Of a stretch of DNA of 64,000 nt, positions 5,218 through 60,360 are shown piece after piece. Positions within the stretch are counted from its first letter, which is position 1, and the number at the start of each line of letters is the position of its first letter. The notes beneath the pieces are model-generated. The model was not told the origin of the DNA and ran no database searches. It was given only the letters and a program-made list of their open reading frames with translations. The position numbers were made by a program, and so were the translations under genes. The stretch is from Candidatus Tayloriibacteriota bacterium (GTDB taxonomy: Bacteria > Patescibacteriota > Minisyncoccia > Phycocordibacterales > PALSA-1337), in the NCBI GenBank assembly GCA_943350765.1, contig CALRAJ010000003.1, positions 1,456-65,455 of the forward strand, read 5' to 3'.

Positions 5218-5293
5218 GCGGCTATAGCTCAGTCGGTAGAGCACCTGCCTTTTAAGCAGAGGGTCGTTGGTTCGATTCCAACTAGCCGCACCA
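5218..5293 (+). tRNA. tRNA-Lys (anticodon TTT), CCA encoded
   Basis: cloverleaf: acceptor GCGGCTA/TAGCCGC, D-arm AGCTCAGTCGGTAGAGC, anticodon loop CTTTTAA, T-arm GTTGGTTCGATTCCAAC. Confidence 0.9.
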
Positions 5294-5499
5294 ATTTAAA
5301 AATCTCCCAAATTCATTTGGGAGATTTTTAAATTGGTGCGGCTAGAGCAAGCCGACTGCTCGGCTTGCGTTTGGAATCGAACAGCGGAGCCATGTTTTTC
5401 TACCAAGAAAAACGGGCGAGCTGGTGCCCAGACTTTTCCGAGCGACGGCGAGGAAAAAGTCGCGGGCGATAAATGTACCCATGGTCCAACTAGCCGCAA
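5294..5499 (+). repeat. tRNA-linked composite element, type II core (follows tRNA-Lys)
   Basis: 42-nt palindromic hairpin; inverted copy TGGTGCGGCTAG-[CUGC-loop hairpin]-TTGGAATCGAAC of the tRNA-Lys 3' end; core ..GGTGCCCAGAC-hairpin-AGTCGCGGGCGATAAATGTACCCATGGTC; direct copy CCAACTAGCCGCA. Confidence 0.6.
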
Positions 5500-6206
5500 T
5501 CACGCATAGGATCAATTGTTTTTAAAGGTCATTAGTAATTTTATTAATAATCAAGGTCGTCTTTCGCTTTTTGATCTCGTTTGTAAAATTTTATCGAAAT
5601 ATTTAGAATAGAACCCCGTATATCTTCTAGTTTACTGTTTATCGCTATAAGTAAGCAGATTGTTAATAGTGCAAATATGGTGAGTAGTGTATTCATTTTT
5701 TTGTATAGTAACATACTACTATAGAATGAGTTTAGGGTTATCCACAGGTACTATATTCATTAAGTGCTACAATTAGTATATAAGGTCATCAAATTTCATA
5801 TACCATCCAGATGGTAATTGTTTCCGACCAAAGGCGGGTCTAGCCCCTGAAATTAAGGAGCGAATTGCTCAAAACCCTTGCAAGGCTGAGAAACTGGATA
5901 GTACATGAAATTTGAGGATCTTTTTCTTGTGTTTACTTATTGTACTCTACCATGTATGGCTTTATGACTAAAGAAAAAAGTGGATAAGTATTGTATTCGA
6001 GATTGAAAAAGGGAGATTGTAAACTAAGGTATATAAAGCTAACGAAAGAGATACTCTACAATTTTAGTACCAACTGGTGCTAAAATTGACACAGTAATCA
6101 TTATGGAAATCAATGAGAACCACGATACTTTCTCTGCAACCTCTTTTTCTAGTTTTTTAATTCTTATTTCAAGGTCTTCGTAATCCATTTTATTTTTTAT
6201 AAGTTT

Positions 6207-7264: not shown

Positions 7265-7441
7265 CTATTTTGTCTGCACAAAAGCGGGTTCTACGAAAGG
7301 CTTTTTTTGGTCTTTTGATCTCTCGGGAGCACCAGATAGGAACCATGCGAGACCGAGAATAATCAAAAATCCCACAAGCCATTTGAGGTCATCTACGGGG
7401 TCTGCTTTTGGTCCTGGTTTTGGTTTTTTGTCGTCTGCCAT
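7265..7441 (-). CDS. small membrane protein (58 aa, MADDKKPKPGPK..)
   Basis: ATG-initiated ORF with a lysine-rich N-terminus and one TM helix; below the size cutoff of the ORF track. Confidence 0.3.
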   Translation of the reverse strand: MADDKKPKPGPKADPVDDLKWLVGFLIILGLAWFLSGAPERSKDQKKPFVEPAFVQTK

Positions 7442-9083: not shown

Positions 9084-9356
9084 ATGCCAATAACCACATC
9101 TGCAAAGAAAGCCCTCAGAGGATCACAAAAGAAGCATGTTTTTAACATGCGTGCAAAGAAGTCGATTGACACTATTATGAAAAAGTTTAAGAAATTGGTG
9201 TCAGAAAAGAATGTAAAAGACGCCCTAGCTATTCTACCGTCACTTTACCAAGTACTCGATAAGGCTAGTAAGATAGGCTATATCAAGCCAAACAACGCTT
9301 CCCGCAACAAATCTCGGGTAGTGGCGATGTTAAAGAAGATAGAGGGGAAGGAGTAG
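9084..9356 (+). CDS. rpsT: 30S ribosomal protein S20
   Basis: MPITTSAKKALRGSQKKHVFNMRAKK.. basic helical protein; TAGTAT -10 element 7 nt before the ATG; terminator hairpin 9371-9402. Confidence 0.8.
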   Translation: MPITTSAKKALRGSQKKHVFNMRAKKSIDTIMKKFKKLVSEKNVKDALAILPSLYQVLDKASKIGYIKPNNASRNKSRVVAMLKKIEGKE

Positions 9357-9439
9357 TGGGAAATAAAGAAAACTGCCGACCAGAAGGTCGGCAGTTTTCT
9401 ATTTTGGTGCTCTTGGACAGACGCTTCGCTATCGAACTC

Positions 9440-9585
9440 CTGGGGAACCCCGTCTACAGGTGCACATCATCTACCGATGTGCCACGGTTCTCCCAATCCT
9501 TCCTCCACGGGAAAACGCCTGTTTTCCCGACCCCTTTCCTGTTCGATTCCTGCCAGGAACGCAACAAACAGCTACGCCTTTTTTG
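9440..9585 (-). repeat. tRNA-linked composite element, type I core (follows tRNA-Arg-GCG on minus strand)
   Basis: inverted T-arm copy GTTCGATTCCTGCCAGGA 9541-9558, then minus-strand core GGGTCGGGAAAACAGGCGTTTTCCCGTGGAGGAA..; degenerate direct copy of the tRNA 3' end near 9406-9420. Confidence 0.55.
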
Positions 9586-9657
9586 TGCTCCTGGCAGGAA
9601 TCGAACCTGCATTTCTCCCTTCGCAGGGGAGTGTCCTATCCGTTGAACGACAAGAGC
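9586..9657 (-). tRNA. tRNA-Arg (anticodon GCG, unusual for bacteria)
   Basis: minus-strand cloverleaf: acceptor GCTCTTG/CAGGAGC, anticodon stem CTCCC/GGGAG, loop CTGCGAA, T-arm GCAGGTTCGATTCCTGC. Confidence 0.75.
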
Positions 9658-9667
9658 GGTAGGTAAA

Positions 9668-9809
9668 CCCCAAATTATGGAATACCGTCGCGGGCGTATC
9701 TTTTTGAAAGACTTCGGAAGCGGGTAGCTGAGACTTGAGAGATTTCTTACCAAAGAAATACTCGTGCTTTCAAAAAGATACGCTAAGAAAGGTGTTTCGT
9801 AATTTGGGG
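9668..9809. mobile_element. MITE-like element family B copy with TAAA target-site duplication
   Basis: TIRs CCCCAAATTATGGAATACC / GGTGTTTCGTAATTTGGGG; TAAA on both flanks; internal hairpin GCGTATCTTTTTGAAAG..CTTTCAAAAAGATACGC enclosing the conserved core GCGGGTAGCTGAGACTTGAGAGATTTCT. Confidence 0.6.
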
Positions 9810-9882
9810 TAAAGAAATATTAGCCAAACTAAAATTATCTAAAACACTAGCAGGAAACGCGATTTACCTTATCACACAAACA

Positions 9883-10344
9883 CTAAAATCCCAAGTATTC
9901 CAAGAGTCTGTGGCTGAGTGGCTCAACATATTCCTCTTGGTGTAAATATTTGGAAAGATATTGCTCTACAATGTCTGGATTGATGTCGCCAAGGAGGATT
10001 GTGATGTGTGGAACCATGACGCGTTTTGAGTGTATATAAAGTCTTGGTTCGTGATGATTGGTTTCTACCCAAAACGACTCGAGTGAGCGATATGGATACA
10101 AGGTGTTGCCAGAAAGTATGCCTTTTTCATTTATTTCATATTTTACCTCTAGTGGTACACGATGTGCATAGAGCGAGAGGGTAAAGGTACCTAATAGTAT
10201 AAAAATTGCGAGTAGAACATTATTAAAAATAATCGCTACTCCAGCAAGTGAAATAGAAATAATCCCCACTGCCCAAAACCAGTCTACGGTTTTTACTTTG
10301 TGTGAATATTCCGGTGCAACCCATTGTATAGGGAGGTATGCCAT
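9883..10344 (-). CDS. hypothetical membrane protein
   Basis: 153 aa, two TM helices near the N-terminus, no recognisable motif. Confidence 0.4.
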   Translation of the reverse strand: MAYLPIQWVAPEYSHKVKTVDWFWAVGIISISLAGVAIIFNNVLLAIFILLGTFTLSLYAHRVPLEVKYEINEKGILSGNTLYPYRSLESFWVETNHHEPRLYIHSKRVMVPHITILLGDINPDIVEQYLSKYLHQEEYVEPLSHRLLEYLGF

Positions 10345-10478
10345 GTCTGTATTGTATCATTTGTTTGCCATGAGCCACAATGGTAAAAGTGGGTATAAAA
10401 CAGTTTTAGTCCTAGGACGAGTTGGTTTAGCTTAACAGCCTTCCATTTATCTATTTTTATGCTAGTATACAAAGTCTA

Positions 10479-10565
10479 AGGATGGGTGCCAGAGTGGTCT
10501 AATGGAACAGTCTTGAAAACTGTCGCCTTCGCAAGGGGGCCGTGAGTTCGAATCTCACCCCATCC
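10479..10565 (+). tRNA. tRNA-Ser (anticodon TGA), type II, no encoded CCA
   Basis: acceptor GGATGGG/CCCATCC, anticodon stem ACAGT/ACTGT, loop CTTGAAA, long variable arm, T-arm GTGAGTTCGAATCTCAC. Confidence 0.9.
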
Positions 10566-10860
10566 GCAGAGGAACGAAGTGAATAAGGAATGGGTGAGTT
10601 CGAACTGGAAGGGGGTCGGGGAAAATGGCGTTTCCCCGTGGAGGAAAACAACGAGTACTCGAGTGTTAGAAACCGTGGGTTTCTAAAACGCAGGCTACTG
10701 CCGAGCAGTGAGGTTCTCACCCCATCCGCCTTCGGTCCGCCGGAGCAGACCTACGGCGTGACGCAGTCCGCCAGTGGGTTTGCATAGGCGACCTTCGCCA
10801 TACTGAAGCATGGCTACGGCGTAAAAAAGTCCGCAGTAATTATGCGTCGACTTTCGCTAG
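10566..10860 (+). repeat. tRNA-linked composite element, type I core (follows tRNA-Ser)
   Basis: inverted T-arm copy GGAATGGGTGAGTTCGAAC 10586-10604; core GGGGGTCGGGGAAAATGGCGTTTCCCCGTGGAGGAAAACAACGAGTACTCGAGTGTTAGAAACCGTGGGTTTCTAAA; direct copy CTCACCCCATCCGCC 10716-10730; tail CCGCCTTCGGTCCGC..GCGTGACGCAGTCCGC also found at 60160-60240. Confidence 0.6.
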
Positions 10861-10897
10861 AGTAATCTATATACTTGTATAGTGCTATAATAAAGCA

Positions 10898-11137
10898 ATG
10901 CATTATGTGTATAGTTTGAAATGTAAAGATGGTTATTATATTGGCTGTACCGATAATCTAAAAGATAGGATACTTAGGCACAAAGGAGGTAATGTGCCTG
11001 CTACCGCAAGTAGACTGTCCCTAGAGTTAGATTTCTATCTCGCGGTCAAGGATAAATACATAGCTTTTAATCTTGAGAAATATTTTAAATCTGGATCAGG
11101 TCGGACATTTATTAAAAAACATTTTATGACAATATAA
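10898..11137 (+). CDS. GIY-YIG nuclease domain protein (79 aa)
   Basis: YVYSLKCKDGYYIGCTDNLKDRILRH matches the GIY-(10aa)-YIG motif with downstream R and H. Confidence 0.7.
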   Translation: MHYVYSLKCKDGYYIGCTDNLKDRILRHKGGNVPATASRLSLELDFYLAVKDKYIAFNLEKYFKSGSGRTFIKKHFMTI

Positions 11138-18383: not shown

Positions 18384-18588
18384 TACTGTATATGCTGGAA
18401 AAAGCTTTTCATTTGAAACCAATTCAATACCAGCGTCTCCTGTTCTAATAAATACAAAATCACTAACCGAAACCATAGAAAAGTATGAGCAAAAAAGACT
18501 AAAGTTTAATTTTTTGCAACAGAATGGGGTGAGGAGCTTTGACCCATCTCTGTAAGAGTGCTATAGTCCTCGATAAGTAATAATAAAT

Positions 18589-18663
18589 GCCCTCGTAGTT
18601 CAATGGATAGAACTGCGGACTTCTAAGCCGTCAATGTTGGTTCGATTCCAACCGAGGGCACCA
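18589..18663 (+). tRNA. tRNA-Arg (anticodon TCT), CCA encoded
   Basis: acceptor GCCCTCG/CGAGGGC, anticodon loop CTTCTAA (A31-G39 mismatch in stem), T-arm GTTGGTTCGATTCCAAC. Confidence 0.85.
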
Positions 18664-19027
18664 AATAAACCTGTAAGGGTTTTTTGTGCAACCTCGGTTG
18701 GAATCGAACCGGAAAGGGGTCGGGGAACGGGAGTTCCCCGTGGAGGAAAACAACGAGTACTCGAGTGTTAGAAACCGTGGGTTTCTAAAGAGCCCGACAC
18801 ACGGAGGGCGAGTGAGATAGCGAAGCGCCCAACCGAGGGCACAAAAAAATGCGGAGCACTTTTTGTGCCCTCGAGCAGGCAAACTGCTTTGCCTGCGGGT
18901 CGGAATCGAACAGCGGAGTCATGTTTTTATACCAAGAAAAACAGGCGAGCTGGTGCCCAGACCAAAGTTTTTGACGAAAAACTTTGAGTCGCGGGCGATA
19001 AATGTACTCATGGTCCAACCGAGGGTT
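18664..19027 (+). repeat. tRNA-linked composite elements: type I core then type II core in tandem (follow tRNA-Arg-TCT)
   Basis: inverted copy CAACCTCGGTTGGAATCGAACC 18689-18710; type I core 18715-18792; direct copy CCCAACCGAGGGCACA 18828-18843; inverted TGTGCCCTCG-[CUGC hairpin]-GGTCGGAATCGAAC 18863-18910; type II core ..GGTGCCCAGACC-hairpin-AGTCGCGGGCGATAAATGTACTCATGGTC; direct copy CAACCGAGGG 19015-19026. Confidence 0.6.
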
Positions 19028-27215: not shown

Positions 27216-27271
27216 TAATAATTAGAAAGTAGAAACAAAACCACCGAGCCATGCTCGGTGGTTTTGTTTGT

Positions 27272-27439
27272 TGGTGCGCGATGAGGGAATCTTTTTCCCT
27301 AGAGGACGGTCACCGTCGCTGAGCACTTTTTTGTTCGCGAGTACACTAAAAAAAGTGCTCAGCGAGGCTTCAAGTCCCTACGCAAAGCGTACCCACGCTT
27401 TGCTCATCACATACGAAAAAATCCCTTTCGGGATTGTTT
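27272..27439 (-). repeat. tRNA-linked composite element (follows tRNA-Val on minus strand; core is one long hairpin)
   Basis: inverted T-arm copy GAGGCTTCAAGTCCCTACGC; hairpin GCTGAGCACTTTTTT..AAAAAAAGTGCTCAGC; direct copy TGGTGCGCGATGAGGGA of the tRNA-Val 3' end at 27272-27288. Confidence 0.55.
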
Positions 27440-30292: not shown

Positions 30293-30366
30293 GGTGGCTA
30301 TAGTTTAGTGGTAAAACTCCGGTTTGTGGAACCGGTATCGAGAGTCCGATTCTCTCTAGCCACCCA
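30293..30366 (+). tRNA. tRNA-His (anticodon GTG) with encoded G-1
   Basis: G-1 paired to discriminator C; acceptor GTGGCTA/TAGCCAC; anticodon stem CCGGT/ACCGG, loop TTGTGGA; T-arm GAGAGTCCGATTCTCTC. Confidence 0.85.
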
Positions 30367-30408
30367 AAAATAATGAGACAAACGCGGAGCGTTTGTCGAC
30401 TGTATTTT

Positions 30409-30537
30409 TGGCATGGTTAGAGAGAATCGGACGACGGAGCGGGGTACCCACATAACAATGTGGGTCGCGAGTCGGTGCCCAGACCGAGGCGAGTGGCGAC
30501 GAGCCTTGAGTCGCGGGAGATTCTCTCTAGCCACCCC
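30409..30537 (+). repeat. tRNA-linked composite element, type II core (follows tRNA-His)
   Basis: terminator hairpin GACAAACGCGGAGCGTTTGTC; inverted copy TGGCATGGTTAGAGAGAATCGGAC; GACGGAG; hairpin ACCCACATAACAATGTGGGT; GTCGGTGCCCAGACC; hairpin CGAGGCGAGTGGCGACGAGCCTTG; AGTCGCGGG; direct copy AGATTCTCTCTAGCCACCCC. Confidence 0.6.
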
Positions 30538-30588
30538 ACATTTGTTTTATTATGTGACTTTTTATCACTAACTCGGTATACTTACTAA

Positions 30589-36270: not shown

Positions 36271-36871
36271 ATGCTTTCAAAAAAAACGCACAAGGTGTCC
36301 ATTATGTCAGTCATTGAATACAGTAAAAAATGGTAGTGGAGATCATGGCCAAAGATACAGATGTAATGATTGTAACAAGAGGTTTAGGTTGAAAGATTAC
36401 AAGAAAGAAAAAGAATCTGAATATATATGGAACGAATTTGTGTTTGCAAAGCAAACACTCAGAGAGTTGTCAGAAATATTTTCATACACTAAAAAACAAC
36501 TCCAAAGAATCTTTGATGGTATACAAATCACACAAAAGATTCACACCCCACGAGCACTACACCTCGTAGTTGATGCCACCTACTTTGGAATGAAGGAAAC
36601 TAGGCTTTGGGGAGTACTAGTTTTTCGAGATCAAACCAACAAAGAGAATCTATGGTGGCAATTCATAGATGAAGAAAGAATACACTACTACAGAGAAGGT
36701 AGAGACTACCTTCTCTCTCTGGGGTATACAATACTATCTGTCACCTGTGATGGATTCAGTGGCTTACCTGAGCTATTTTCACCCATTCCTGTACAGTTCT
36801 GTCACTTTCACCAAGCCCAGATCGTGAGAAGGTATACAACACTTAATCCGAGTTTTTTGCTCAGTTGCTGA
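36271..36871 (+). pseudogene. IS1-family transposase remnant (InsA-like zinc finger plus InsB-like DDE region), frameshifted at an A8 tract and C-terminally truncated
   Basis: with one A removed from the A8 tract (36279-36286) the ORF reads MLSKKRTRCPLCQSLNTVKNGSGDHGQRYRCNDCNKRF, matching the IS1 InsA CPxC..VRNG..QRYxCxxC finger; downstream VVDATYFG and TCDGFSGLP align with IS1 InsB D residues; the ORF stops where the third catalytic residue is expected, and the GC-rich segment begins there. Confidence 0.6.
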
Positions 36872-37545
36872 CTACCGTCAAACCTGGCCAGATGGATCAT
36901 AAACGGATGCAGGCTGCGATTAAGGACCCCCAGCTCACCGAGCGCATGTATGCGTTCGTTAATGGTTACGAGGTTGCGCCACTGCAGGTGGTTATCCCTC
37001 CAGTCGTGGAGCTGGCAACTTTTATCCCCCTCCACCTCTCGATCCCGCTCGCCACTCACAAGGCCCGCTCGATGTCGGAGCTTTTCCGCAATCGTGGCAA
37101 GGTCATCTTCTACTACCGCGATGGCGACCTCGACGGTTGGTTCACCGCGAACTCCCCACAGTGCCCAGCTGGCACCGCCTCCCTCGTCAAAACCCCCAGG
37201 GCAATGACGTTCCGGCAGATGGCGCAGTCGGCCACTGGACTCCAGTCTGAGTCCCTCGCCGACCTCTCCCGTGCCATTGTCACCAAAGGCCTCGACATCG
37301 TCCCCACCCAATGGGACGACGCTATCGGCGCCACTCAGAACGGCACGGATCTTCTCCTCGTCAACGGCTATGCCAACTTCGCTTTTACGAAGACAGACAA
37401 GAAGCTCAAAGATGAGAATCAACAGGTAGTCGTGCTCTGCGCCCGCCGCGACGACGACGGCCGGTGGGGCGCCGGCGTCTGCGGGCTCGACAACGACGAC
37501 GAGTGGAACGCCGACTACAGGCTTCTCCTCCGCAACTCGCCCTAG
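36865..37545 (+). CDS. DGR target (variable) protein; C-terminal 35 codons encoded by VR
   Basis: GC-rich (about 60%) ORF; its 3' 106 bp is the A-mutagenised homologue of the TR; C-terminus ..LCARRDDDGRWGAGVCGLDNDDEWNADYRLLLRNSP; start uncertain (TTG 36865 or ATG 36892). Confidence 0.7.
   Translation: MLTTVKPGQMDHKRMQAAIKDPQLTERMYAFVNGYEVAPLQVVIPPVVELATFIPLHLSIPLATHKARSMSELFRNRGKVIFYYRDGDLDGWFTANSPQCPAGTASLVKTPRAMTFRQMAQSATGLQSESLADLSRAIVTKGLDIVPTQWDDAIGATQNGTDLLLVNGYANFAFTKTDKKLKDENQQVVVLCARRDDDGRWGAGVCGLDNDDEWNADYRLLLRNSP
37433..37538 (+). repeat. DGR variable repeat (VR)
   Basis: 106-bp ungapped alignment to TR 37788-37893 with 16 mismatches, 14 at TR adenines (11 A>G, 1 A>C, 2 A>T); identical 3' IMH-like GGCTTCTCCTCCGCAACTC, then palindrome GCCCTAGGGC. 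Confidence 0.85.
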
Positions 37546-37571
37546 GGCACTTTTGCCCTTTGACACTTCTT

Positions 37572-37603
37572 CCCCCAGCACTACGGTGCTGGGGGATTTT
37601 TTT
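37572..37603 (+). terminator. rho-independent terminator after the DGR target gene
   Basis: CCCCCAGCACTACGGTGCTGGGGG hairpin plus T7. Confidence 0.65.
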
Positions 37604-37787
37604 ATAAAATTTGATATACTGCCATTTAGGATTTGCTGACATACTCGGCGTAAGCTTGGTATGGCGAGTCCTGCAACATTCAAAAAAGAAATAGTTGGTG
37701 CCTCACTCTGGTGAGAAAAAGTCTCAAAATACTATTCAGCCCCAAGAGAATTCAAAGGGTGTTGTAATAGATGGAGCGAGGTACAAA

Positions 37788-37893
37788 TGCTCTACGCCAA
37801 CCGCAACGACGACGGCCAGTGGAATGCGAACGTCAACAGGCTCGACAACGACAACGAGTGGAACGCCGACAACAGGCTTCTCCTCCGCAACTC
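37788..37893 (+). repeat. DGR template repeat (TR)
   Basis: AAC/AAT-rich in the VR reading frame (MLYANRNDDGQWNANVNRLDNDNEWNADNRLLLRN); followed by hairpin CTCCCGCTTACTGCGGGAG plus T-run. Confidence 0.85.
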
Positions 37894-37908
37894 TTGCTTT
37901 TCTCCCGC

Positions 37909-38253
37909 TTACTGCGGGAGTTTTTGTTCTATGGAATAGATCCAGCCATGAAGCATCTTTCCGGCAGCGACCAATTTTTCATTTAGTAAGATAAACTTCT
38001 TGTCCTCGAATATGTTCATCTCCCAGCCAACAGATAAGAAGAATTTGATCAGATCCAAGTGCTCCTGAGCAGCCTTTATTAGAAGTATTTTTTGTTCGCC
38101 ACTACAATAGGTGGCCTGGTAAATTGACCTCAATGCCTCGGTGAAATAATCTTCAATTTTTGAAGCAATGCCAAATCGTACTGGTTTCGGTAAATTTTCG
38201 CTGTATGTAAACCATAGAGAATATGTTTCTTTCAGGTGTTGTAGCACTGGCAA
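37909..38253 (-). CDS. avd: Avd-like accessory variability determinant (four-helix-bundle, 23S rRNA IVS protein family)
   Basis: 114 aa, TTG start; LPKPVRFGIASKIEDYF.. and LLIKAAQEHLDLIKFFLSVGW helices match the Avd/IVS four-helix-bundle pattern; minus strand, divergent from the RT. Confidence 0.65.
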   Translation of the reverse strand: MPVLQHLKETYSLWFTYSENLPKPVRFGIASKIEDYFTEALRSIYQATYCSGEQKILLIKAAQEHLDLIKFFLSVGWEMNIFEDKKFILLNEKLVAAGKMLHGWIYSIEQKLPQ

Positions 38254-38261
38254 AATCGTGC

Positions 38262-38271
38262 GGGGGGGGGG
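38262..38271. repeat. G10 homopolymeric tract in the avd/RT divergent intergenic spacer
   Basis: CGGGGGGGGGGT, 14 nt upstream of the RT ATG, 9 nt from the avd start. Confidence 0.8.
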
Positions 38272-38284
38272 TAGACTTTGTAGT

Positions 38285-39319
38285 ATGGCTCGGATTCAAC
38301 TGATTCATACCTATCAGCATATCATTTCTGTTGAAAATTTGCTTTCAGCGTTGAGAGAATTTACCAAGGGCAAAAAGCAGAAAAAAGATGTCCAACAATT
38401 CTCACTTCGTCTGATGGATAATATTTTGAAACTCCATCGAGATCTTGCGGATAGAACTTATGTACATGGAGATTATCACGCTTTCAATATTTCCGATCCA
38501 AAGCCACGCAATATTCACAAAGCACTGGTGCGAGACAGACTGGTACATCACGCTATATACAGAGTGTTGTGCCCCTTTTTTGACCGTACTTTCATCAGTG
38601 ATTCGTATTCGTGTCGTCTGTATAAAGGCACACATCGAGCACTGAATCGGTTTAGGGATTTTGGACAAAAAGTTTCAAAAAATAACACACGCACCTGTTG
38701 GGTTTTGAAATGTGATGTGAGGAAGTTTTTTGCTTCTATTGACCACGGCGTCTTGTTCGCTATTCTAGAGCAGTATATTCCAGATAAAGATATCCTATGG
38801 CTACTCACTCGAGTGATCGATAGTTTCCATTCTACCCGTTTTGGTGTCGGACTTCCTCTCGGCAATCTCACATCACAGCTTCTAGTGAATATTTATATGA
38901 ACGAGTTTGACCAGTATATGAAGCATCGGCTTAAGGCCAAACACTATATTCGATATGCTGACGATTTTGTTATTTTGAGTAATGATAAAAAACGGCTCGA
39001 AAATATTTTGATAGAAATTAGTGACTTTTTGCAAGTAAAGCTTCGCCTGAATCTTCATCCAGACAAAGTGTTCATAAAAACATTTGCATCAGGTGTAGAT
39101 TTCCTTGGCTGGGTACACTTTTCTGACCATAGGGTACTGAGGACTTCCACCAAGAAAAGAATGTTTAAACGATTGGCTGAGGGAGAGGTATCGGAGACGA
39201 CCATCCTTTCGTATTTAGGCATGCTGAGTCATGGTAATGGGATGGGGTTGCAAGAGATGATTACTGGGCTGTCAGGATTGAATTTGGCTGGCGGAGGTAT
39301 GAGTGATAGTAAAACTTAA
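38285..39319 (+). CDS. DGR reverse transcriptase
   Basis: RT motifs 1-2 PKPRNIHKALVRDRLVHHAIYRVL, A WVLKCDVRKFFASIDH, B' GLPLGNLTSQLLVNIYMNEFD (SQ in place of group II SP, the DGR hallmark), C YIRYADDFVIL, D LRLNLHPDK, E GVDFLGW; start taken at ATG 38285 (MARIQL) rather than the ORF-track start 38168. Confidence 0.85.
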   Translation: MARIQLIHTYQHIISVENLLSALREFTKGKKQKKDVQQFSLRLMDNILKLHRDLADRTYVHGDYHAFNISDPKPRNIHKALVRDRLVHHAIYRVLCPFFDRTFISDSYSCRLYKGTHRALNRFRDFGQKVSKNNTRTCWVLKCDVRKFFASIDHGVLFAILEQYIPDKDILWLLTRVIDSFHSTRFGVGLPLGNLTSQLLVNIYMNEFDQYMKHRLKAKHYIRYADDFVILSNDKKRLENILIEISDFLQVKLRLNLHPDKVFIKTFASGVDFLGWVHFSDHRVLRTSTKKRMFKRLAEGEVSETTILSYLGMLSHGNGMGLQEMITGLSGLNLAGGGMSDSKT

Positions 39320-59895: not shown

Positions 59896-59984
59896 GGAGA
59901 GATGGATGAGTGGCTTAAATCAACGGTTTACTAAACCGTCGTTCCCTAACAGGAACCGTGGGTTCGAATCCCACTCTCTCCGCA
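59896..59984 (+). tRNA. type II tRNA (Ser-like) with unusual anticodon loop TTACTAA (nominal anticodon ACT)
   Basis: acceptor GGAGAGA/TCTCTCC, 3-bp D-stem, anticodon stem ACGGT/ACCGT, long variable arm CGTTCCCTAACAGGAAC, T-arm GTGGGTTCGAATCCCAC. Confidence 0.65.
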
Positions 59985-60024
59985 AACGGCCCAAAAAGAA
60001 AGAAGTTCTTTTTGGGTAGCCGTT

Positions 60025-60360
60025 GCGCGAGAGAGTGGGATTCGAACGCCGGAACTCATAATTTTCAGTAGAAAATTTAGTGAGGCGGTGCCCAGACAAA
60101 TTTTTTCGACGGAAAAAATTTAGTCGCGGGCGAAAAACGTACTCGTGGTCTCGCTCTCTCCGCCTTCGGTCCGCAGTAGCTTGGCTTCGGAGTGACACAG
60201 TCCGCAGAAGATGAGCGAAGGCGGGAAGGGGATTCGAAGCCAGATTGAGTATTTTTTCGATTTTGTAATCAAATGAAGAAAAAATCCAATCGGGGTACTG
60301 AAACTGTAAGTTTCGAAAAGCGTACTCGTGGTCTCGCTCTCTTTTCGATACTGCCATTGA
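60025..60360 (+). repeat. tRNA-linked composite element, type II core (follows the type II tRNA), with additional partial duplication
   Basis: terminator hairpin 59986-60024; inverted copy GCGCGAGAGAGTGGGATTCGAAC; hairpin CTCATAATTTTCAGTAGAAAATTTAGTGAG; GCGGTGCCCAGAC; hairpin AAATTTTTTCGACGGAAAAAATTT; AGTCGCGGGCGAAAAACGTACTCGTGGTC; direct copy TCGCTCTCTCCGCC; second direct copy at 60322-60350. Confidence 0.6.

Follow-up and report, generated by a model that had tools for sequence, protein, structure and literature searches.

Integrative elements targeting the 3' ends of tRNA, tmRNA, and protein genes, together with the CIMEs (deleted, cis-mobilizable derivatives of such elements that accrete in tandem), insert into the end of a conserved gene and supply it with a surrogate 3' end, and they are marked by direct repeats of the gene end, blocks of identity flanked by diverged sequence, tandem arrays separated by copies of the repeat, and a presence that varies between strains and species. 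Mitochondrial mobile elements, including that of Allomyces atp6 with its GIY-YIG ORF and the double-hairpin elements, bring in a duplicated gene 3' end. We identified elements sharing these features of integrative elements, here called type I, in a window of 64 kb (the whole stretch of Candidatus Tayloriibacteriota DNA that was analyzed). They have in common with the mitochondrial elements a hybrid gene with a foreign 3' end, a native end kept downstream, small size, and richness in hairpins, as well as a GIY-YIG ORF located directly downstream in the window and at 3 further loci (L082, L090, and L034). In contrast to the mitochondrial elements, type I elements lie in bacterial chromosomes, and the ORF encodes a bare catalytic domain of 79 aa and accompanies 4 of about 120 copies; a GIY-YIG endonuclease was rejected as the engine on this count.

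Copies in the window and extent of the family

A preliminary description of the window had placed 3 copies of a two-hairpin core behind tRNA genes, and both pattern and covariance-model searches bore this out. The pattern GGGTCGGGRAA-N5-12-TYCCCGTGGAGGAA matched at 10613-10646 (+), 18717-18748 (+), and 9500-9533 (-), with 0 matches expected from 100 shuffles, and a covariance model built on 82 homologues returned the same 3 copies only (E ~1e-18; Table 1), the next-best match in the window having E = 0.15. Each copy follows a same-strand tRNA called by ARAGORN (Ser-TGA, Arg-TCT, and Arg-GCG for copies 1, 2, and 3). The arms proposed for the first hairpin, GGGGAAA/TTTCCCC, GGGGAAC/GTTCCCC, and GGGAAAAC/GTTTTCCC, were correct, and the stretch said to be shared by 2 copies was recovered in copies 1 and 2, which are identical over AACAACGAGTACTCGAGTGTTAGAAACCGTGGGTTTCTAAA. 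The second hairpin of copy 3 is the same as that of copies 1 and 2, with a 34-nt loop insertion splitting it. The S2 tail of copy 1 starts with CC, as does the tRNA-Ser trailer of a sister species, and the S1 tail starts with CA; the linker type of this copy was also found at L010, L034, and L092. The S2 of copy 3 ends in CCA, which the tRNA-Arg(GCG) gene lacks. Elements of some type stand behind 7 of the 8 tRNAs in the window.

Table 1. Positions of the 3 type I copies, their parts, and their host genes in the window
Feature	Position	Strand	Evidence
tRNA-Ser(TGA), host of copy 1; T-loop to 3' end is S1	10480..10567	+	ARAGORN; Rfam tRNA model, 56.3 bits
Copy 1 spacer with ACGAAGT mini-hairpin; tip of long S1/A hairpin	10568..10586	+	Sequence; T-loop-to-A fold
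Copy 1 A arm ggaatgggtgagttcgaac, reverse complement of tRNA-Ser acceptor 3' strand, T-stem 3' strand, and T-loop	10587..10605	+	Local alignment
Copy 1 type I core	10599..10692	+	Covariance-model match, 77.7 bits
Copy 1 J1/2, purine-rich joining strand TGGAAGGGGGTC	10606..10617	+	Conserved columns, 82 sequences
Copy 1 hairpin P2, GGGGAAA-ATGGCG-TTTCCCC	10618..10637	+	Family-wide pairing, compensatory changes
Copy 1 J2/3 joining strand GTGGAGGAA	10638..10646	+	Invariant in 82/82 aligned sequences (search pattern partly required it)
Copy 1 optional insert P2a AACAACGAGTACTCGAGTGTT	10647..10667	+	Alignment blocks, listing of matches
Copy 1 hairpin P3, AGAAACC-GTG-GGTTTCT	10668..10684	+	Both-side changes, 103 homologues
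Copy 1 linker, before S2	10685..10715	+	Sequence
Small hairpin GCAGGCTACTGC in copy 1 linker	10690..10701	+	Sequence
T-loop-like GTGAGGTT in copy 1 linker	10708..10715	+	Sequence
Copy 1 S2 ctcaccccatccgcc, direct copy of tRNA-Ser T-stem 3' strand, acceptor 3' strand, and discriminator	10716..10730	+	
Promoter-like site at tRNA-Arg(TCT)	18539..18567	+	
tRNA-Arg(TCT), host of copy 2	18589..18663	+	ARAGORN
Type I element copy 2	18687..18842	+	Covariance-model match 18703-18794, 74.4 bits; fold z-score -3.6
Copy 2 A	18687..18710	+	
Copy 2 J1/2	18711..18721	+	
Copy 2 P2	18722..18739	+	
Copy 2 J2/3	18740..18748	+	
Copy 2 P2a	18749..18769	+	
Copy 2 P3	18770..18786	+	
Copy 2 GTGAGAT	18812..18818	+	
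Copy 2 AGCGAAGCG mini-hairpin	18819..18827	+	
Copy 2 S2	18828..18842	+	
tRNA-Arg(GCG), host of copy 3	9585..9657	-	ARAGORN
Type I element copy 3	9405..9560	-	Covariance-model match 9435-9547, 77.2 bits
Copy 3 A	9541..9560	-	
Copy 3 J1/2	9529..9540	-	
Copy 3 P2	9509..9528	-	
Copy 3 J2/3	9498..9508	-	
Copy 3 P3	9441..9497	-	
Nested insertion in copy 3 P3, 34 nt	9450..9483	-	
Copy 3 GTTCGAT	9431..9437	-	
Copy 3 AGCGAAGCG	9422..9430	-	
Copy 3 S2	9405..9421	-	
Strong bidirectional intrinsic terminator, directly 3' of copy 3 S2, common to convergent S20 gene	9367..9400	-	15-bp stem and T run

Pattern scanning of 185,579 genomes gave 126 matches, from which we recognized more than 110 (about 120) credible copies, nearly all in Patescibacteria (CPR). 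A same-strand tRNA ended 24-250 nt upstream in 71 of the 126 matches, and the host tRNAs covered at least 17 amino-acid identities. The 7 matches on viral contigs are probably due to chance, because they represent one repeated sequence scoring 20 bits with no tRNA nearby, and a phage origin was rejected on these grounds. At gathering thresholds, Rfam 15 matched only the 8 tRNAs of the window, and at permissive thresholds it gave no credible overlap with any element (E <= 10 for region 9200-11000, E <= 0.5 for the whole window), so that no known family was matched at either level; at 18 loci with no same-strand tRNA nearby, it returned tRNA matches only, none over the element. Full-text literature searches, literal motif sequences included, found no paper on the family, only unrelated papers and primer matches. 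The elements form an undescribed family of small structured elements across Patescibacteria, and several unrelated cores, including type I, type II, and the type behind tRNA-Val, have a common arm design.

Core structure and host-derived arms

The core consists of J1/2 (family consensus NGGAARG-GGGUC, with GGGTC invariant and GGAA near-invariant in 82 sequences), P2, J2/3 GUGGAGGAA, an optional P2a, and P3 with AAACC-GWG-GGUUU, and forms a three-way junction. Pairing in P2 reached 98.7-99.3% over the family, with compensatory changes at 4 of its 7 pairs; there were 79 distinct sequences of this first hairpin, with AT/GC/CG exchanges at four positions and mismatches nearly absent, the three outer G-C pairs being fixed by the search pattern itself. 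In P3, 7 of 8 pairs had changed on both sides among 103 homologues, the loop-proximal AAACC-GWG-GGUUU being conserved and the lower stem covarying. The P2a of copy 1 recurs identically in copy 2 and at locus L042, and its position is elsewhere occupied by GCGAAGC-type mini-hairpins or by nothing. In a covariance-model alignment of the 103 homologues, pairing held in 95.7% of the cells of the two hairpins, and 177 cells were compensatory versus 53 +/- 5.6 in shuffles (0 of 500 reaching the observed value), with 11 of 15 pairs changing on both sides; the signal collapsed once partners were slid by 1-3 columns. The preliminary description had argued for a selected secondary structure from covariation in the 3 window copies, which by themselves are thin evidence; the wider family settles the matter, since covariation persisted strongly in more than 100 further copies. 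The two-hairpin module that it proposed is real and structured but does not stand free; it lies at the center of a larger unit, with flanks copied from the gene next to it. GGAGGAA was rejected as a peptide or Shine-Dalgarno signal, with no consistent start codon or ORF across copies.

The unit runs from the host 3' end (S1) through a palindromic or terminator-like hairpin, an inverted copy (A), the core, and a T-loop-like heptamer to a direct copy (S2). Among 56 well-defined elements, the end of A lies about 7 nt ahead of GGGUC, and S2 stops at the 3' end of the tRNA, to which it is 97.8% identical (17 differences in 756 nt). Where S2 and tRNA differ, A sides with the tRNA 66 times and with S2 once. 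Non-matching positions at tRNA hosts make up 2.2% of S2 versus about 8% of outer A, the best-kept part being the T-loop and T-stem in A and the T-stem and acceptor in S2. At tRNA hosts, A and S2 can form a 12-bp acceptor/T-stem stack with discriminator, in which a helix and the core replace the T-loop and outer A is often unpaired. A recurrent TC-to-GA change in the T-loop part of S2 was found in 20 of 44 scored elements and would give tandem G.A pairs against A; on inspection, a K-turn at these pairs was rejected, the 3-nt bulge adjoining them on neither strand. Nor did the S2 differences support selection for base pairing between S2 and the 5' strand of the tRNA, only 4 of the 17 preserving it.

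The tails of S2 often match the non-CCA trailer of the gene (up to 6 of 6 nt), and the duplication at L092 takes in the T-stem, acceptor, trailer, terminator, and 4 more nt with 44 of 45 positions identical; this points to duplication at the level of DNA. An origin of S2 as a copy of mature tRNA was rejected on the same trailer-copying tails, CCA being present in S2 and absent from the gene in only 4 cases.

The same S1-A-core-S2 layout was found at the 3' ends of S9, L33, L7/L12, L11, and S14 genes. The preliminary description had called the elements tRNA-linked; the link is not obligatory, because ribosomal-protein genes serve as hosts too. Direct S1/S2 repeats flank the element at 63 tRNA hosts and at the protein hosts, where S1 and S2 of 7 well-aligned genes differ by 30 synonymous versus 4 non-synonymous codons, the signature of a gene restored by an element-borne copy. 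At protein hosts, A is the reverse complement of S1 and not of S2, the closing helix is not tRNA-like, and A-S2 pairing is often poor (8 of 13 in L054), because A follows S1. An origin of S1 and S2 through a diversity-generating retroelement (DGR) was rejected, as their differences are synonymous changes of all kinds and not confined to adenines; in the genuine DGR of the window, 17 of 20 mismatches fall at template adenines.

The tRNA-sense strand was the better folder in 52 of 56 elements, with 146 versus 76 G-U pairs, a bias compatible both with a transcript and with single-stranded DNA of that strand, and wobble pairs lean weakly the same way (23 G-U versus 14 A-C in the core, 18 versus 11 for A against tRNA). 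For 48 of 56 elements, a single long hairpin spans the folded sequence from the T-loop to A (median z -7.5). The strand bias would suit a rival reading in which A-core-S2 is a 3'-trailer RNA domain serving the host, co-transcribed with tRNA and ribosomal-protein operons, with mobility secondary. In such an RNA, a closing helix copied from the stems (acceptor and T) of the adjacent tRNA would let RNase P, RNase Z, and the CCA-adding enzyme release the domain with tRNA-like ends, and the three-way junction would bind a protein or ligand in processing, stability, or regulation. This reading is favored by a promoter-like site before tRNA-Arg(TCT) with none before its element, the strong terminator after S2 of copy 3, terminators after S2 in 11 of 56 elements, the junction strands kept over CPR phyla, the tandem G.A pairs, and an S2 that stops exactly at the tRNA 3' end, in 4 cases with a CCA that the gene lacks. 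However, a terminator-like hairpin stands between tRNA and A in 23 of 56 elements, so that many would be poorly transcribed, and the minimum-energy fold predicted for the co-transcript would harm the host by unfolding the tRNA, S2 capturing the 5' strand of the acceptor in 49 of 56. The badly paired helix at protein hosts and the near absence of compensatory change between A and S2 (1 case versus 66) also speak against it, and the element is dispensable, since the orthologous tRNAs of a sister species lack it or retain a decayed form, and it is swapped between strains. We regard a host-serving RNA as unlikely.

Turnover and a candidate mobile cassette

Our preferred reading, held tentatively at a probability of roughly 45%, is that type I elements are non-autonomous integrative cassettes (about 95-250 nt) bearing a surrogate 3' end. 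A cassette would consist of the distal part of S1, the hairpin, A, and the core, and would enter a conserved, highly expressed gene somewhere in its final 15-45 nt, at the T-loop/T-stem boundary in tRNA genes, by recombination inside the identity block. The cassette-borne copy would complete the gene as its surrogate 3' end, often supplying a terminator, and the resident 3' end would be displaced downstream to become S2. Because S and its complement A are both carried, a single strand of the cassette (read-through transcript or single-stranded DNA) could fold and would show the target as a duplex stem beside the purine-rich junction, which may act as the handle for a putative trans-acting recombination factor. 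Cores might be swapped among colonized loci via universal T-loop-derived flanking sequences, and A and S could be created at a new host by snap-back synthesis or template switching at a terminator palindrome, as the single locus L092 suggests. At L006 and L092, the complementarity of A continues through the trailer up to the hairpin tip.

Comparisons between genomes revealed turnover. In a sister species whose neighboring gene has 78% amino-acid identity, the same tRNA-Ser carries no type I element and tRNA-Arg(GCG) carries an internally deleted type I remnant, and a co-occurring strain with an identical PolA protein has type I where the window has the 5' half of a type II element; at the module itself, other assemblies are identical to the window, and strain comparison there is uninformative. 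The variable part is identical in copies 1 and 2, although they sit at different tRNAs. In the tandem array at locus L007, S-hairpin-A-X-S-hairpin-A-typeI-S, the S-hairpin-A blocks are identical, as would be expected from Campbell-type accretion, and nested insertions were found in P3 or J2/3. Against the cassette, the deep conservation of purine-rich single-stranded junctions among phyla would be more usual in a functional RNA than at a recombination site, an S2 better kept than outer A could reflect selection on S2 rather than recent insertion, and the tandem G.A pairs from the recurrent TC-to-GA change argue that the A-S2 helix itself is functional.

The palindromes could instead be passive structural DNA, namely terminator palindromes grown by template switching, with cores as REP/BIME-like repeats at the 3' ends of highly expressed genes, acting as terminators, insulators, or mRNA stabilizers with no dedicated mobility machinery. 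Placement at the ends of tRNA and ribosomal-protein operons, long near-perfect palindromes taking in trailers, and the position of A at L092, immediately behind the T run of the terminator, with its mirroring of the trailer, all suit this proposal, as do the GCGAAGC-type mini-hairpins throughout, this motif being exceptionally stable as DNA. In passive DNA, however, two covarying hairpins together with invariant single-stranded junctions would not persist from one CPR phylum to the next; synonymous-only S1/S2 divergence and identical cores at different tRNAs require transfer of defined units, and a copy number of 3 in 64 kb is low, unlike REP families. We consider this explanation very improbable.

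We searched for an engine and found no recombinase, transposase, or recurrent enzyme gene within 1.5 kb of the approximately 120 copies, the top "families" of neighboring ORFs being translations of the elements themselves; the 64-kb window contained no such enzyme except the DGR reverse transcriptase, which has its own template and target. Neither an excised form nor a clean pair of empty and occupied sites with exact junctions was observed, and inverted core sites in the style of tyrosine recombinases were not apparent around the crossover. The lack of a candidate effector gene within the same 1.5 kb also weighs on a different proposal, in which the core would be the scaffold for two guides or homology arms, A and S2, matched to the host gene. 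Reading opposite strands, the arms would bring either an unlinked CPR enzyme or the RNA itself to the host 3' end, for recombination with that gene or replacement of its end. Either a nuclease or recombinase would be sent to unoccupied alleles for homing, as by TnpB omega-RNA or IS110 bridge RNA, or the host RNA 3' end would be swapped as by an engineered trans-splicing ribozyme, with a 5' antisense guide, a catalytic core, and a 3' replacement exon. Every host indeed shows a 5' antisense arm, a conserved core, and a 3' sense copy of the target, each arm tracking the host sequence independently of the other, and the best-kept parts of A and S2 would form two guides reading opposite strands of adjacent target halves. 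The very good preservation of S2, the mutated T-loop beside it with the real tRNA T-loop intact (as expected for self/non-self discrimination), and the common arm design of unrelated cores point the same way. However, mutual complementarity would tie the arms up in a helix, many copies have terminators upstream of them, and a core of about 75 nt, for which Rfam has no ribozyme or guide-RNA match, is far smaller than any known self-splicing ribozyme. We give both versions, and the guide proposal as a whole, a low probability.

Implications and comparison with known systems

If the cassette reading is correct, a large fraction of Patescibacteria tRNA genes carry uncatalogued small structured cassettes, and many essential genes are colonized harmlessly via a replacement 3' end and a matched inverted arm, which implies template-directed creation of the arm or nucleic-acid-guided recognition; either would interest researchers of mobile elements and genome engineering. 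A guide, if real, would be a new RNA- or DNA-guided system for integration or 3'-end replacement, with one scaffold retargeted to dozens of genes. The elements also generate spurious ORFs in annotation and explain why a contig ends just beyond a polymorphic tRNA-Lys locus. The conserved junction offers a concrete handle for pulling down a partner, and Saccharibacteria, which are cultivable and naturally transformable, make the system experimentally accessible.

Group I and II introns and self-cleaving ribozymes gave no Rfam model match to the core, which has two hairpins and falls well short of a group I intron in size. Type I shares with engineered trans-splicing group I ribozymes a guide, a core, and a replacement 3' sequence, with arms that read opposite strands. 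TnpB/IscB omega-RNA and IS110 bridge RNA share a conserved scaffold flanked by target-matching segments; in contrast to these mobile-element guide RNAs, type I has no adjacent tnpB, iscB, or IS110 and no match to Rfam HEARO or IS605-orfB, and its arms pair mutually and do not form open loops. Unlike IS110 bridge RNA, P2 and P3 are continuous helices free of internal loops, and no recombinase gene is linked. The inverted arms are host-derived and vary by copy, and the direct repeat is variable (13-78 nt), unlike those of MITEs. In the comparison with IS200/IS605 PATEs, P2 and P3 resemble each other as direct hairpins and TCGAAC always closes the left flank, but long duplications are present and no tnpA or tnpB is nearby.

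In contrast to integrative elements and CIMEs, type I elements are only about 100-250 nt long, have no linked integrase (none within 1.5 kb of the copies or in the window annotation), and add an inverted copy of the target and a covarying three-way-junction core; within one lineage they occupy dozens of tRNA and ribosomal-protein targets, which a sequence-specific integrase would not allow. With respect to integron attC and the XerCD-dependent CTX-phage attP(+), for which geometry alone was compared, type I differs in having no features of IntI or Xer sites, a stem specific to the host gene, and a conserved core outside the arms. It has in common with them inverted arms that could fold into a duplex mimicking the target, a mismatched stretch near the inferred crossover (tandem G.A, T-loop positions 55-56), and an integrated order of hybrid site, hairpin loop, inverted arm, and rest, as would be expected for integration of a folded strand.

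Type I copies and their conserved core

The window, from the chromosome of a member of the Patescibacteria (CPR), encodes PolA, TsaE, RuvA, S20, NusG, L11, and ArgRS and contains 8 tRNA genes; its related loci lie in CPR genomes. All three copies of the two-hairpin type I core claimed in the preliminary description, at tRNA-Ser (copy 1), tRNA-Arg-TCT (copy 2), and tRNA-Arg-GCG (copy 3), were present, with 3 matches to their shared pattern in the window versus 0 expected by chance, and a covariance model returned exactly three type I matches (E ~1e-18; next match, E = 0.15). A 41-nt variable stretch is identical between copies 1 and 2, and the second hairpin of copy 3 is the same as theirs but split by a 34-nt insertion.

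Scanning 185,579 species genomes with the pattern GGGTCGGG-N6-24-CCCGTGGAGGAA, we identified at least 119 loci. Among the matches listed, all but ~6, which are GC-rich chance matches, belong to Patescibacteria, comprising Saccharibacteria and lineages of Parcubacteria/Paceibacteria (Kaiser-, Taylor-, Yonath-, Nomura-, Ryan-, Vogel-, and Campbellbacteria). The consensus core runs NGGAARG-GGGUC, hairpin P2, GUGGAGGAA(GG), an optional hairpin between J2/3 and P3 (often a GCGAAGC-type mini-hairpin), and hairpin P3, of which the AAACC-GWG-GGUUU top is conserved and the base covaries. P2 occurred as 79 different sequences, in which AT, GC, and CG pairs replace one another with nearly no mismatches; its outer three G-C pairs were preset by the search pattern. 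Aligning 82 cores with MAFFT put pairing in the two helices at 94.7%, with 124 compensatory cells versus 41 in shuffles. The covariance-model alignment of 103 homologues, biased towards its model yet nonetheless matched by the MAFFT result, had 95.7% of cells paired, both-sided change in 11 of 15 pairs, and 177 compensatory cells versus 53 in shuffles (0 of 500 shuffles reached 177), a signal that collapsed in slid controls. No family in Rfam 15 resembled the core, and a literature search found no description of the element. The selected secondary structure proposed from three copies was open to refutation by a lack of covariation in further copies or by a known Rfam family; with strong covariation on 82 and 103 homologues and no Rfam match, both objections fail.

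Host-derived arms and folding

The type I module sits in the middle of a larger unit. At every tRNA-linked copy, an inverted arm (A) precedes the core and a second, direct copy (S2) of the host gene's 3' end (S1) follows it. A reverse-complements the neighbouring tRNA over its T-loop and T-stem 3' strand and, with poorer matching, over its acceptor 3' strand, terminating ~7 nt upstream of GGGUC. S2 is a direct copy running from the T-stem 3' strand through the acceptor 3' strand to the discriminator, 97.8% identical to the tRNA (17 of 756 nt differ). A same-strand tRNA ended 24-250 nt upstream of 71 of the 126 pattern matches listed (~120 of them credible), and tRNA hosts spanned at least 17 amino-acid identities. 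In most S2 tails the non-CCA trailer of the gene itself recurs, at times over 6/6 nt, and at locus L092 the duplication extends through trailer and terminator (44/45 nt), with six trailer bases mirrored in A; this copying argues that S2 is a DNA-level duplication, not a copy of mature tRNA. At sites of difference between S2 and the tRNA, A agreed with the tRNA 66 times and with S2 once. In copy 1, S1 is followed by CA and S2 by CC, matching the start of the tRNA-Ser trailer in a sister species (neighbouring gene 78% identical in amino acids).

Many credible copies without a same-strand tRNA within 400 nt sit directly 3' of ribosomal protein genes (S9 at at least 7 loci, L33 at three, L7/L12, L11, and S14), and one directly after a LemA gene. 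The S1-hairpin-A-core-S2 order is found there too; the link between element and host is not tRNA-specific. In seven well-aligned protein hosts, S1 and S2 differed by 30 synonymous versus 4 nonsynonymous codon differences, so S2 either still evolves as the 3' end of a coding sequence or did so until not long ago. A exactly reverse-complements S1, not S2 (L014, 18/18; L054, 13/13; also L108 and L025). Since A tracks S1 or the tRNA rather than S2, S1 and A travel together and S2 is the end of the other lineage.

Folding favoured the tRNA-sense strand in 52 of the 56 elements, and this strand had twice as many G-U pairs; wobble counts within helices were only mildly asymmetric. In 48 of 56, the stretch from the T-loop to the end of A forms one long hairpin (median 75% of bases paired; median z, -7.5), often tipped by a palindromic, terminator-like hairpin (23/56). 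That such units are simply passive palindromic DNA seems quite improbable beside the covarying core. A recurrent TC-to-GA change in S2 at T-loop positions 55-56 (20 of 44 scored elements) would create tandem G.A pairs against A; this change suggests that A and S do pair as a helix within a folded single strand, either a transcript or single-stranded DNA. For a trailer RNA serving the host, which we consider unlikely, two transcription signals are at hand, a promoter-like site upstream of tRNA-Arg-TCT and a strong terminator after S2 of copy 3, yet 41% of elements have a terminator-like hairpin upstream of A. In predicted folds of co-transcripts of tRNA and element, the tRNA 5' acceptor strand pairs with S2 and S1 pairs with A in 49 of 56, so co-transcription would threaten tRNA folding, as a thermodynamic prediction only.

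Neighbouring elements and turnover

Other tRNAs of the window have the same arm design with different cores. Type II elements consist of an antisense arm, a core (..CGGAG.. hairpin ..GGTGCCCAGAC hairpin GTCGCGGG..), and a sense copy, with relatives carrying GAGGCGGGGTCGAGAGTAC at loci L007 and L026 and no match in Rfam. The tRNA-Val core is a long A/T-rich hairpin (GCTGAGCACTTTTTT...AAAAAAGTGCTCAGC) with an antisense arm on one side and, on the other, a sense copy of the tRNA 3' end that includes CCA; a terminator comes next.

Features identified in the window
Feature	Position	Strand	Remark
Type I copy 1	10599-10692	+	Covariance model
Type I copy 2	18703-18794	+	Covariance model
Type I copy 3	9435-9547	-	Covariance model
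Type II element behind tRNA-Lys	5296-5495
Type II element behind tRNA-Arg-TCT	18843-19025		Second in tandem array after type I copy
Type II element behind tRNA-His	30366-30540
Type II elements (two) behind tRNA-Ser-ACT	60000-60165; 60220-60345
Third core type behind tRNA-Val	27270-27425	-
TTCGG-TCCGC(C/A) modules	10731-10860; 60165-60225		First lies in 3' part of copy 1 region (10566-10860)
Mini-hairpins	18819-18827; 9422-9430; 10574-10580
GIY-YIG ORF	10898-11137	+	79 aa
tRNA-Ser-ACT	59896-59983	+	Anticodon A34
Mechanical ORFs	9356-9646; 9454-9753; 18631-18882	+; -; -	83-99 aa
DGR target ORF	36865-37545		Variable repeat 37424-37538
DGR template repeat	37779-37893		Mismatches at template adenines, 17/20
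DGR reverse transcriptase	38168-39319		Pfam RVT_1

Short modules that begin with TTCGG-TCCGC(C/A) and end with GTGACRCAG-TCCGC(C/A) carry, after S2, 2-3 repeats of the final 5-6 nt of the tRNA-Ser acceptor, and a similar TTCGG-TTCGCA-GTAGC module follows tRNA-Trp at L082 (~7268-7300); they may represent an additional element type of very small size. Mini-hairpins (GCGAAGC, ACGAAGT, CGAGCGAAGCGAG) with GAA triloops, commonly bordered by G.A pairs, occupy several fixed points of elements and also lie in post-tRNA spacers at many loci; the GCGAAGC-type motif is exceptionally stable as DNA. Mechanical ORFs overlap tRNAs and elements, and element translations were the largest apparent neighbour protein families across loci (28, 15, and 12 loci); gene callers are likely to mis-annotate such elements as hypothetical proteins. 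ACT, the anticodon called for this tRNA-Ser, is unusual for bacteria; the tRNA could read by A-to-I wobble, or its anticodon loop could have been miscalled. A classical diversity-generating retroelement (DGR) spans 36865-39319, the best NCBIfam match of its reverse transcriptase being a group II intron model, below its cut-off.

The copy 1 region is identical in other assemblies of the same strain. A strain that co-occurs with this one and encodes the identical PolA protein has a type I element specific to Lys in place of the 5' half of the window's type II element. Locus L001 (7541-7879) and the window (5218-5560) show strain polymorphism: they are identical in flank and tRNA-Lys up to the discriminator, past which trailer, terminator, and element differ (type I versus type II 5' half) until similarity returns in the type II 3' half; the L001 contig stops shortly past this locus. 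The sister species retains the tRNA-Ser/ORF/tRNA-Arg-GCG arrangement, without a type I element at tRNA-Ser and with an internally deleted remnant, joined to a Ser-like end, at tRNA-Arg-GCG. In a more distant relative, 30 nt separate tRNA-Ser from the next gene. Nested insertions include a ~85-nt insert (GAGAAATCATGTT..GATTTCG..AAGCGAAAGGTGTAC..) in J2/3, between GGAGGAA and P3, common to L105 and L113, whose hosts are tRNA-Ile and tRNA-Met of different genomes, and a 34-nt hairpin in the P3 loop of copy 3 (9450-9483) and of L001. The L007 array reads S-hairpin-A-X-S-hairpin-A-typeI-S with identical S-hairpin-A blocks, as would result if a circular S-hairpin-A-core unit entered an already resident one by Campbell-type insertion.

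Proposed cassette reading and known systems

Taking the anatomy, host-derived arms, synonymous divergence, turnover, tandem arrays, and conserved folded core as established, we tentatively read type I elements, with a probability of about 0.45, as small non-autonomous integrative cassettes carrying a surrogate 3' end. The free form would be S-hairpin-A-core, recombining at the T-loop/T-stem boundary, inside the identity block, with the junction recognized by a trans-acting factor; cores may be swapped via T-loop-derived flanks, and snap-back or a template switch at the terminator palindrome may give rise to A. Counting against the cassette reading, no enzyme gene was linked to type I copies (ORFs within 1.5 kb of ~120 copies), and neither credible phage-borne copies nor an excised form was seen. 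A GIY-YIG ORF, a bare catalytic domain, lies directly downstream of the copy 1 region, with homologues ~190-270 nt from the core at L082, L090, and L034, in only 4 of ~120 loci. A programmable guide or 3'-end-replacement RNA is a less likely reading, and there is a small but real chance that the unit is a new guided system.

MITEs, DGRs, IS110 bridge RNA, and any Rfam family were each rejected as the identity of the type I unit. Closest in working are integrative elements of tRNA genes and their deleted, tandemly accreting derivatives, and its geometry resembles folded single-strand sites (attC, CTX attP). Among ORFs within 1.5 kb of ~120 copies, no linked counterpart of the enzymes that define these systems was found. 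The type I unit has three features that no compared system unites: an inverted arm specific to its host, a three-way junction conserved at great depth, and the use of dozens of different genes.
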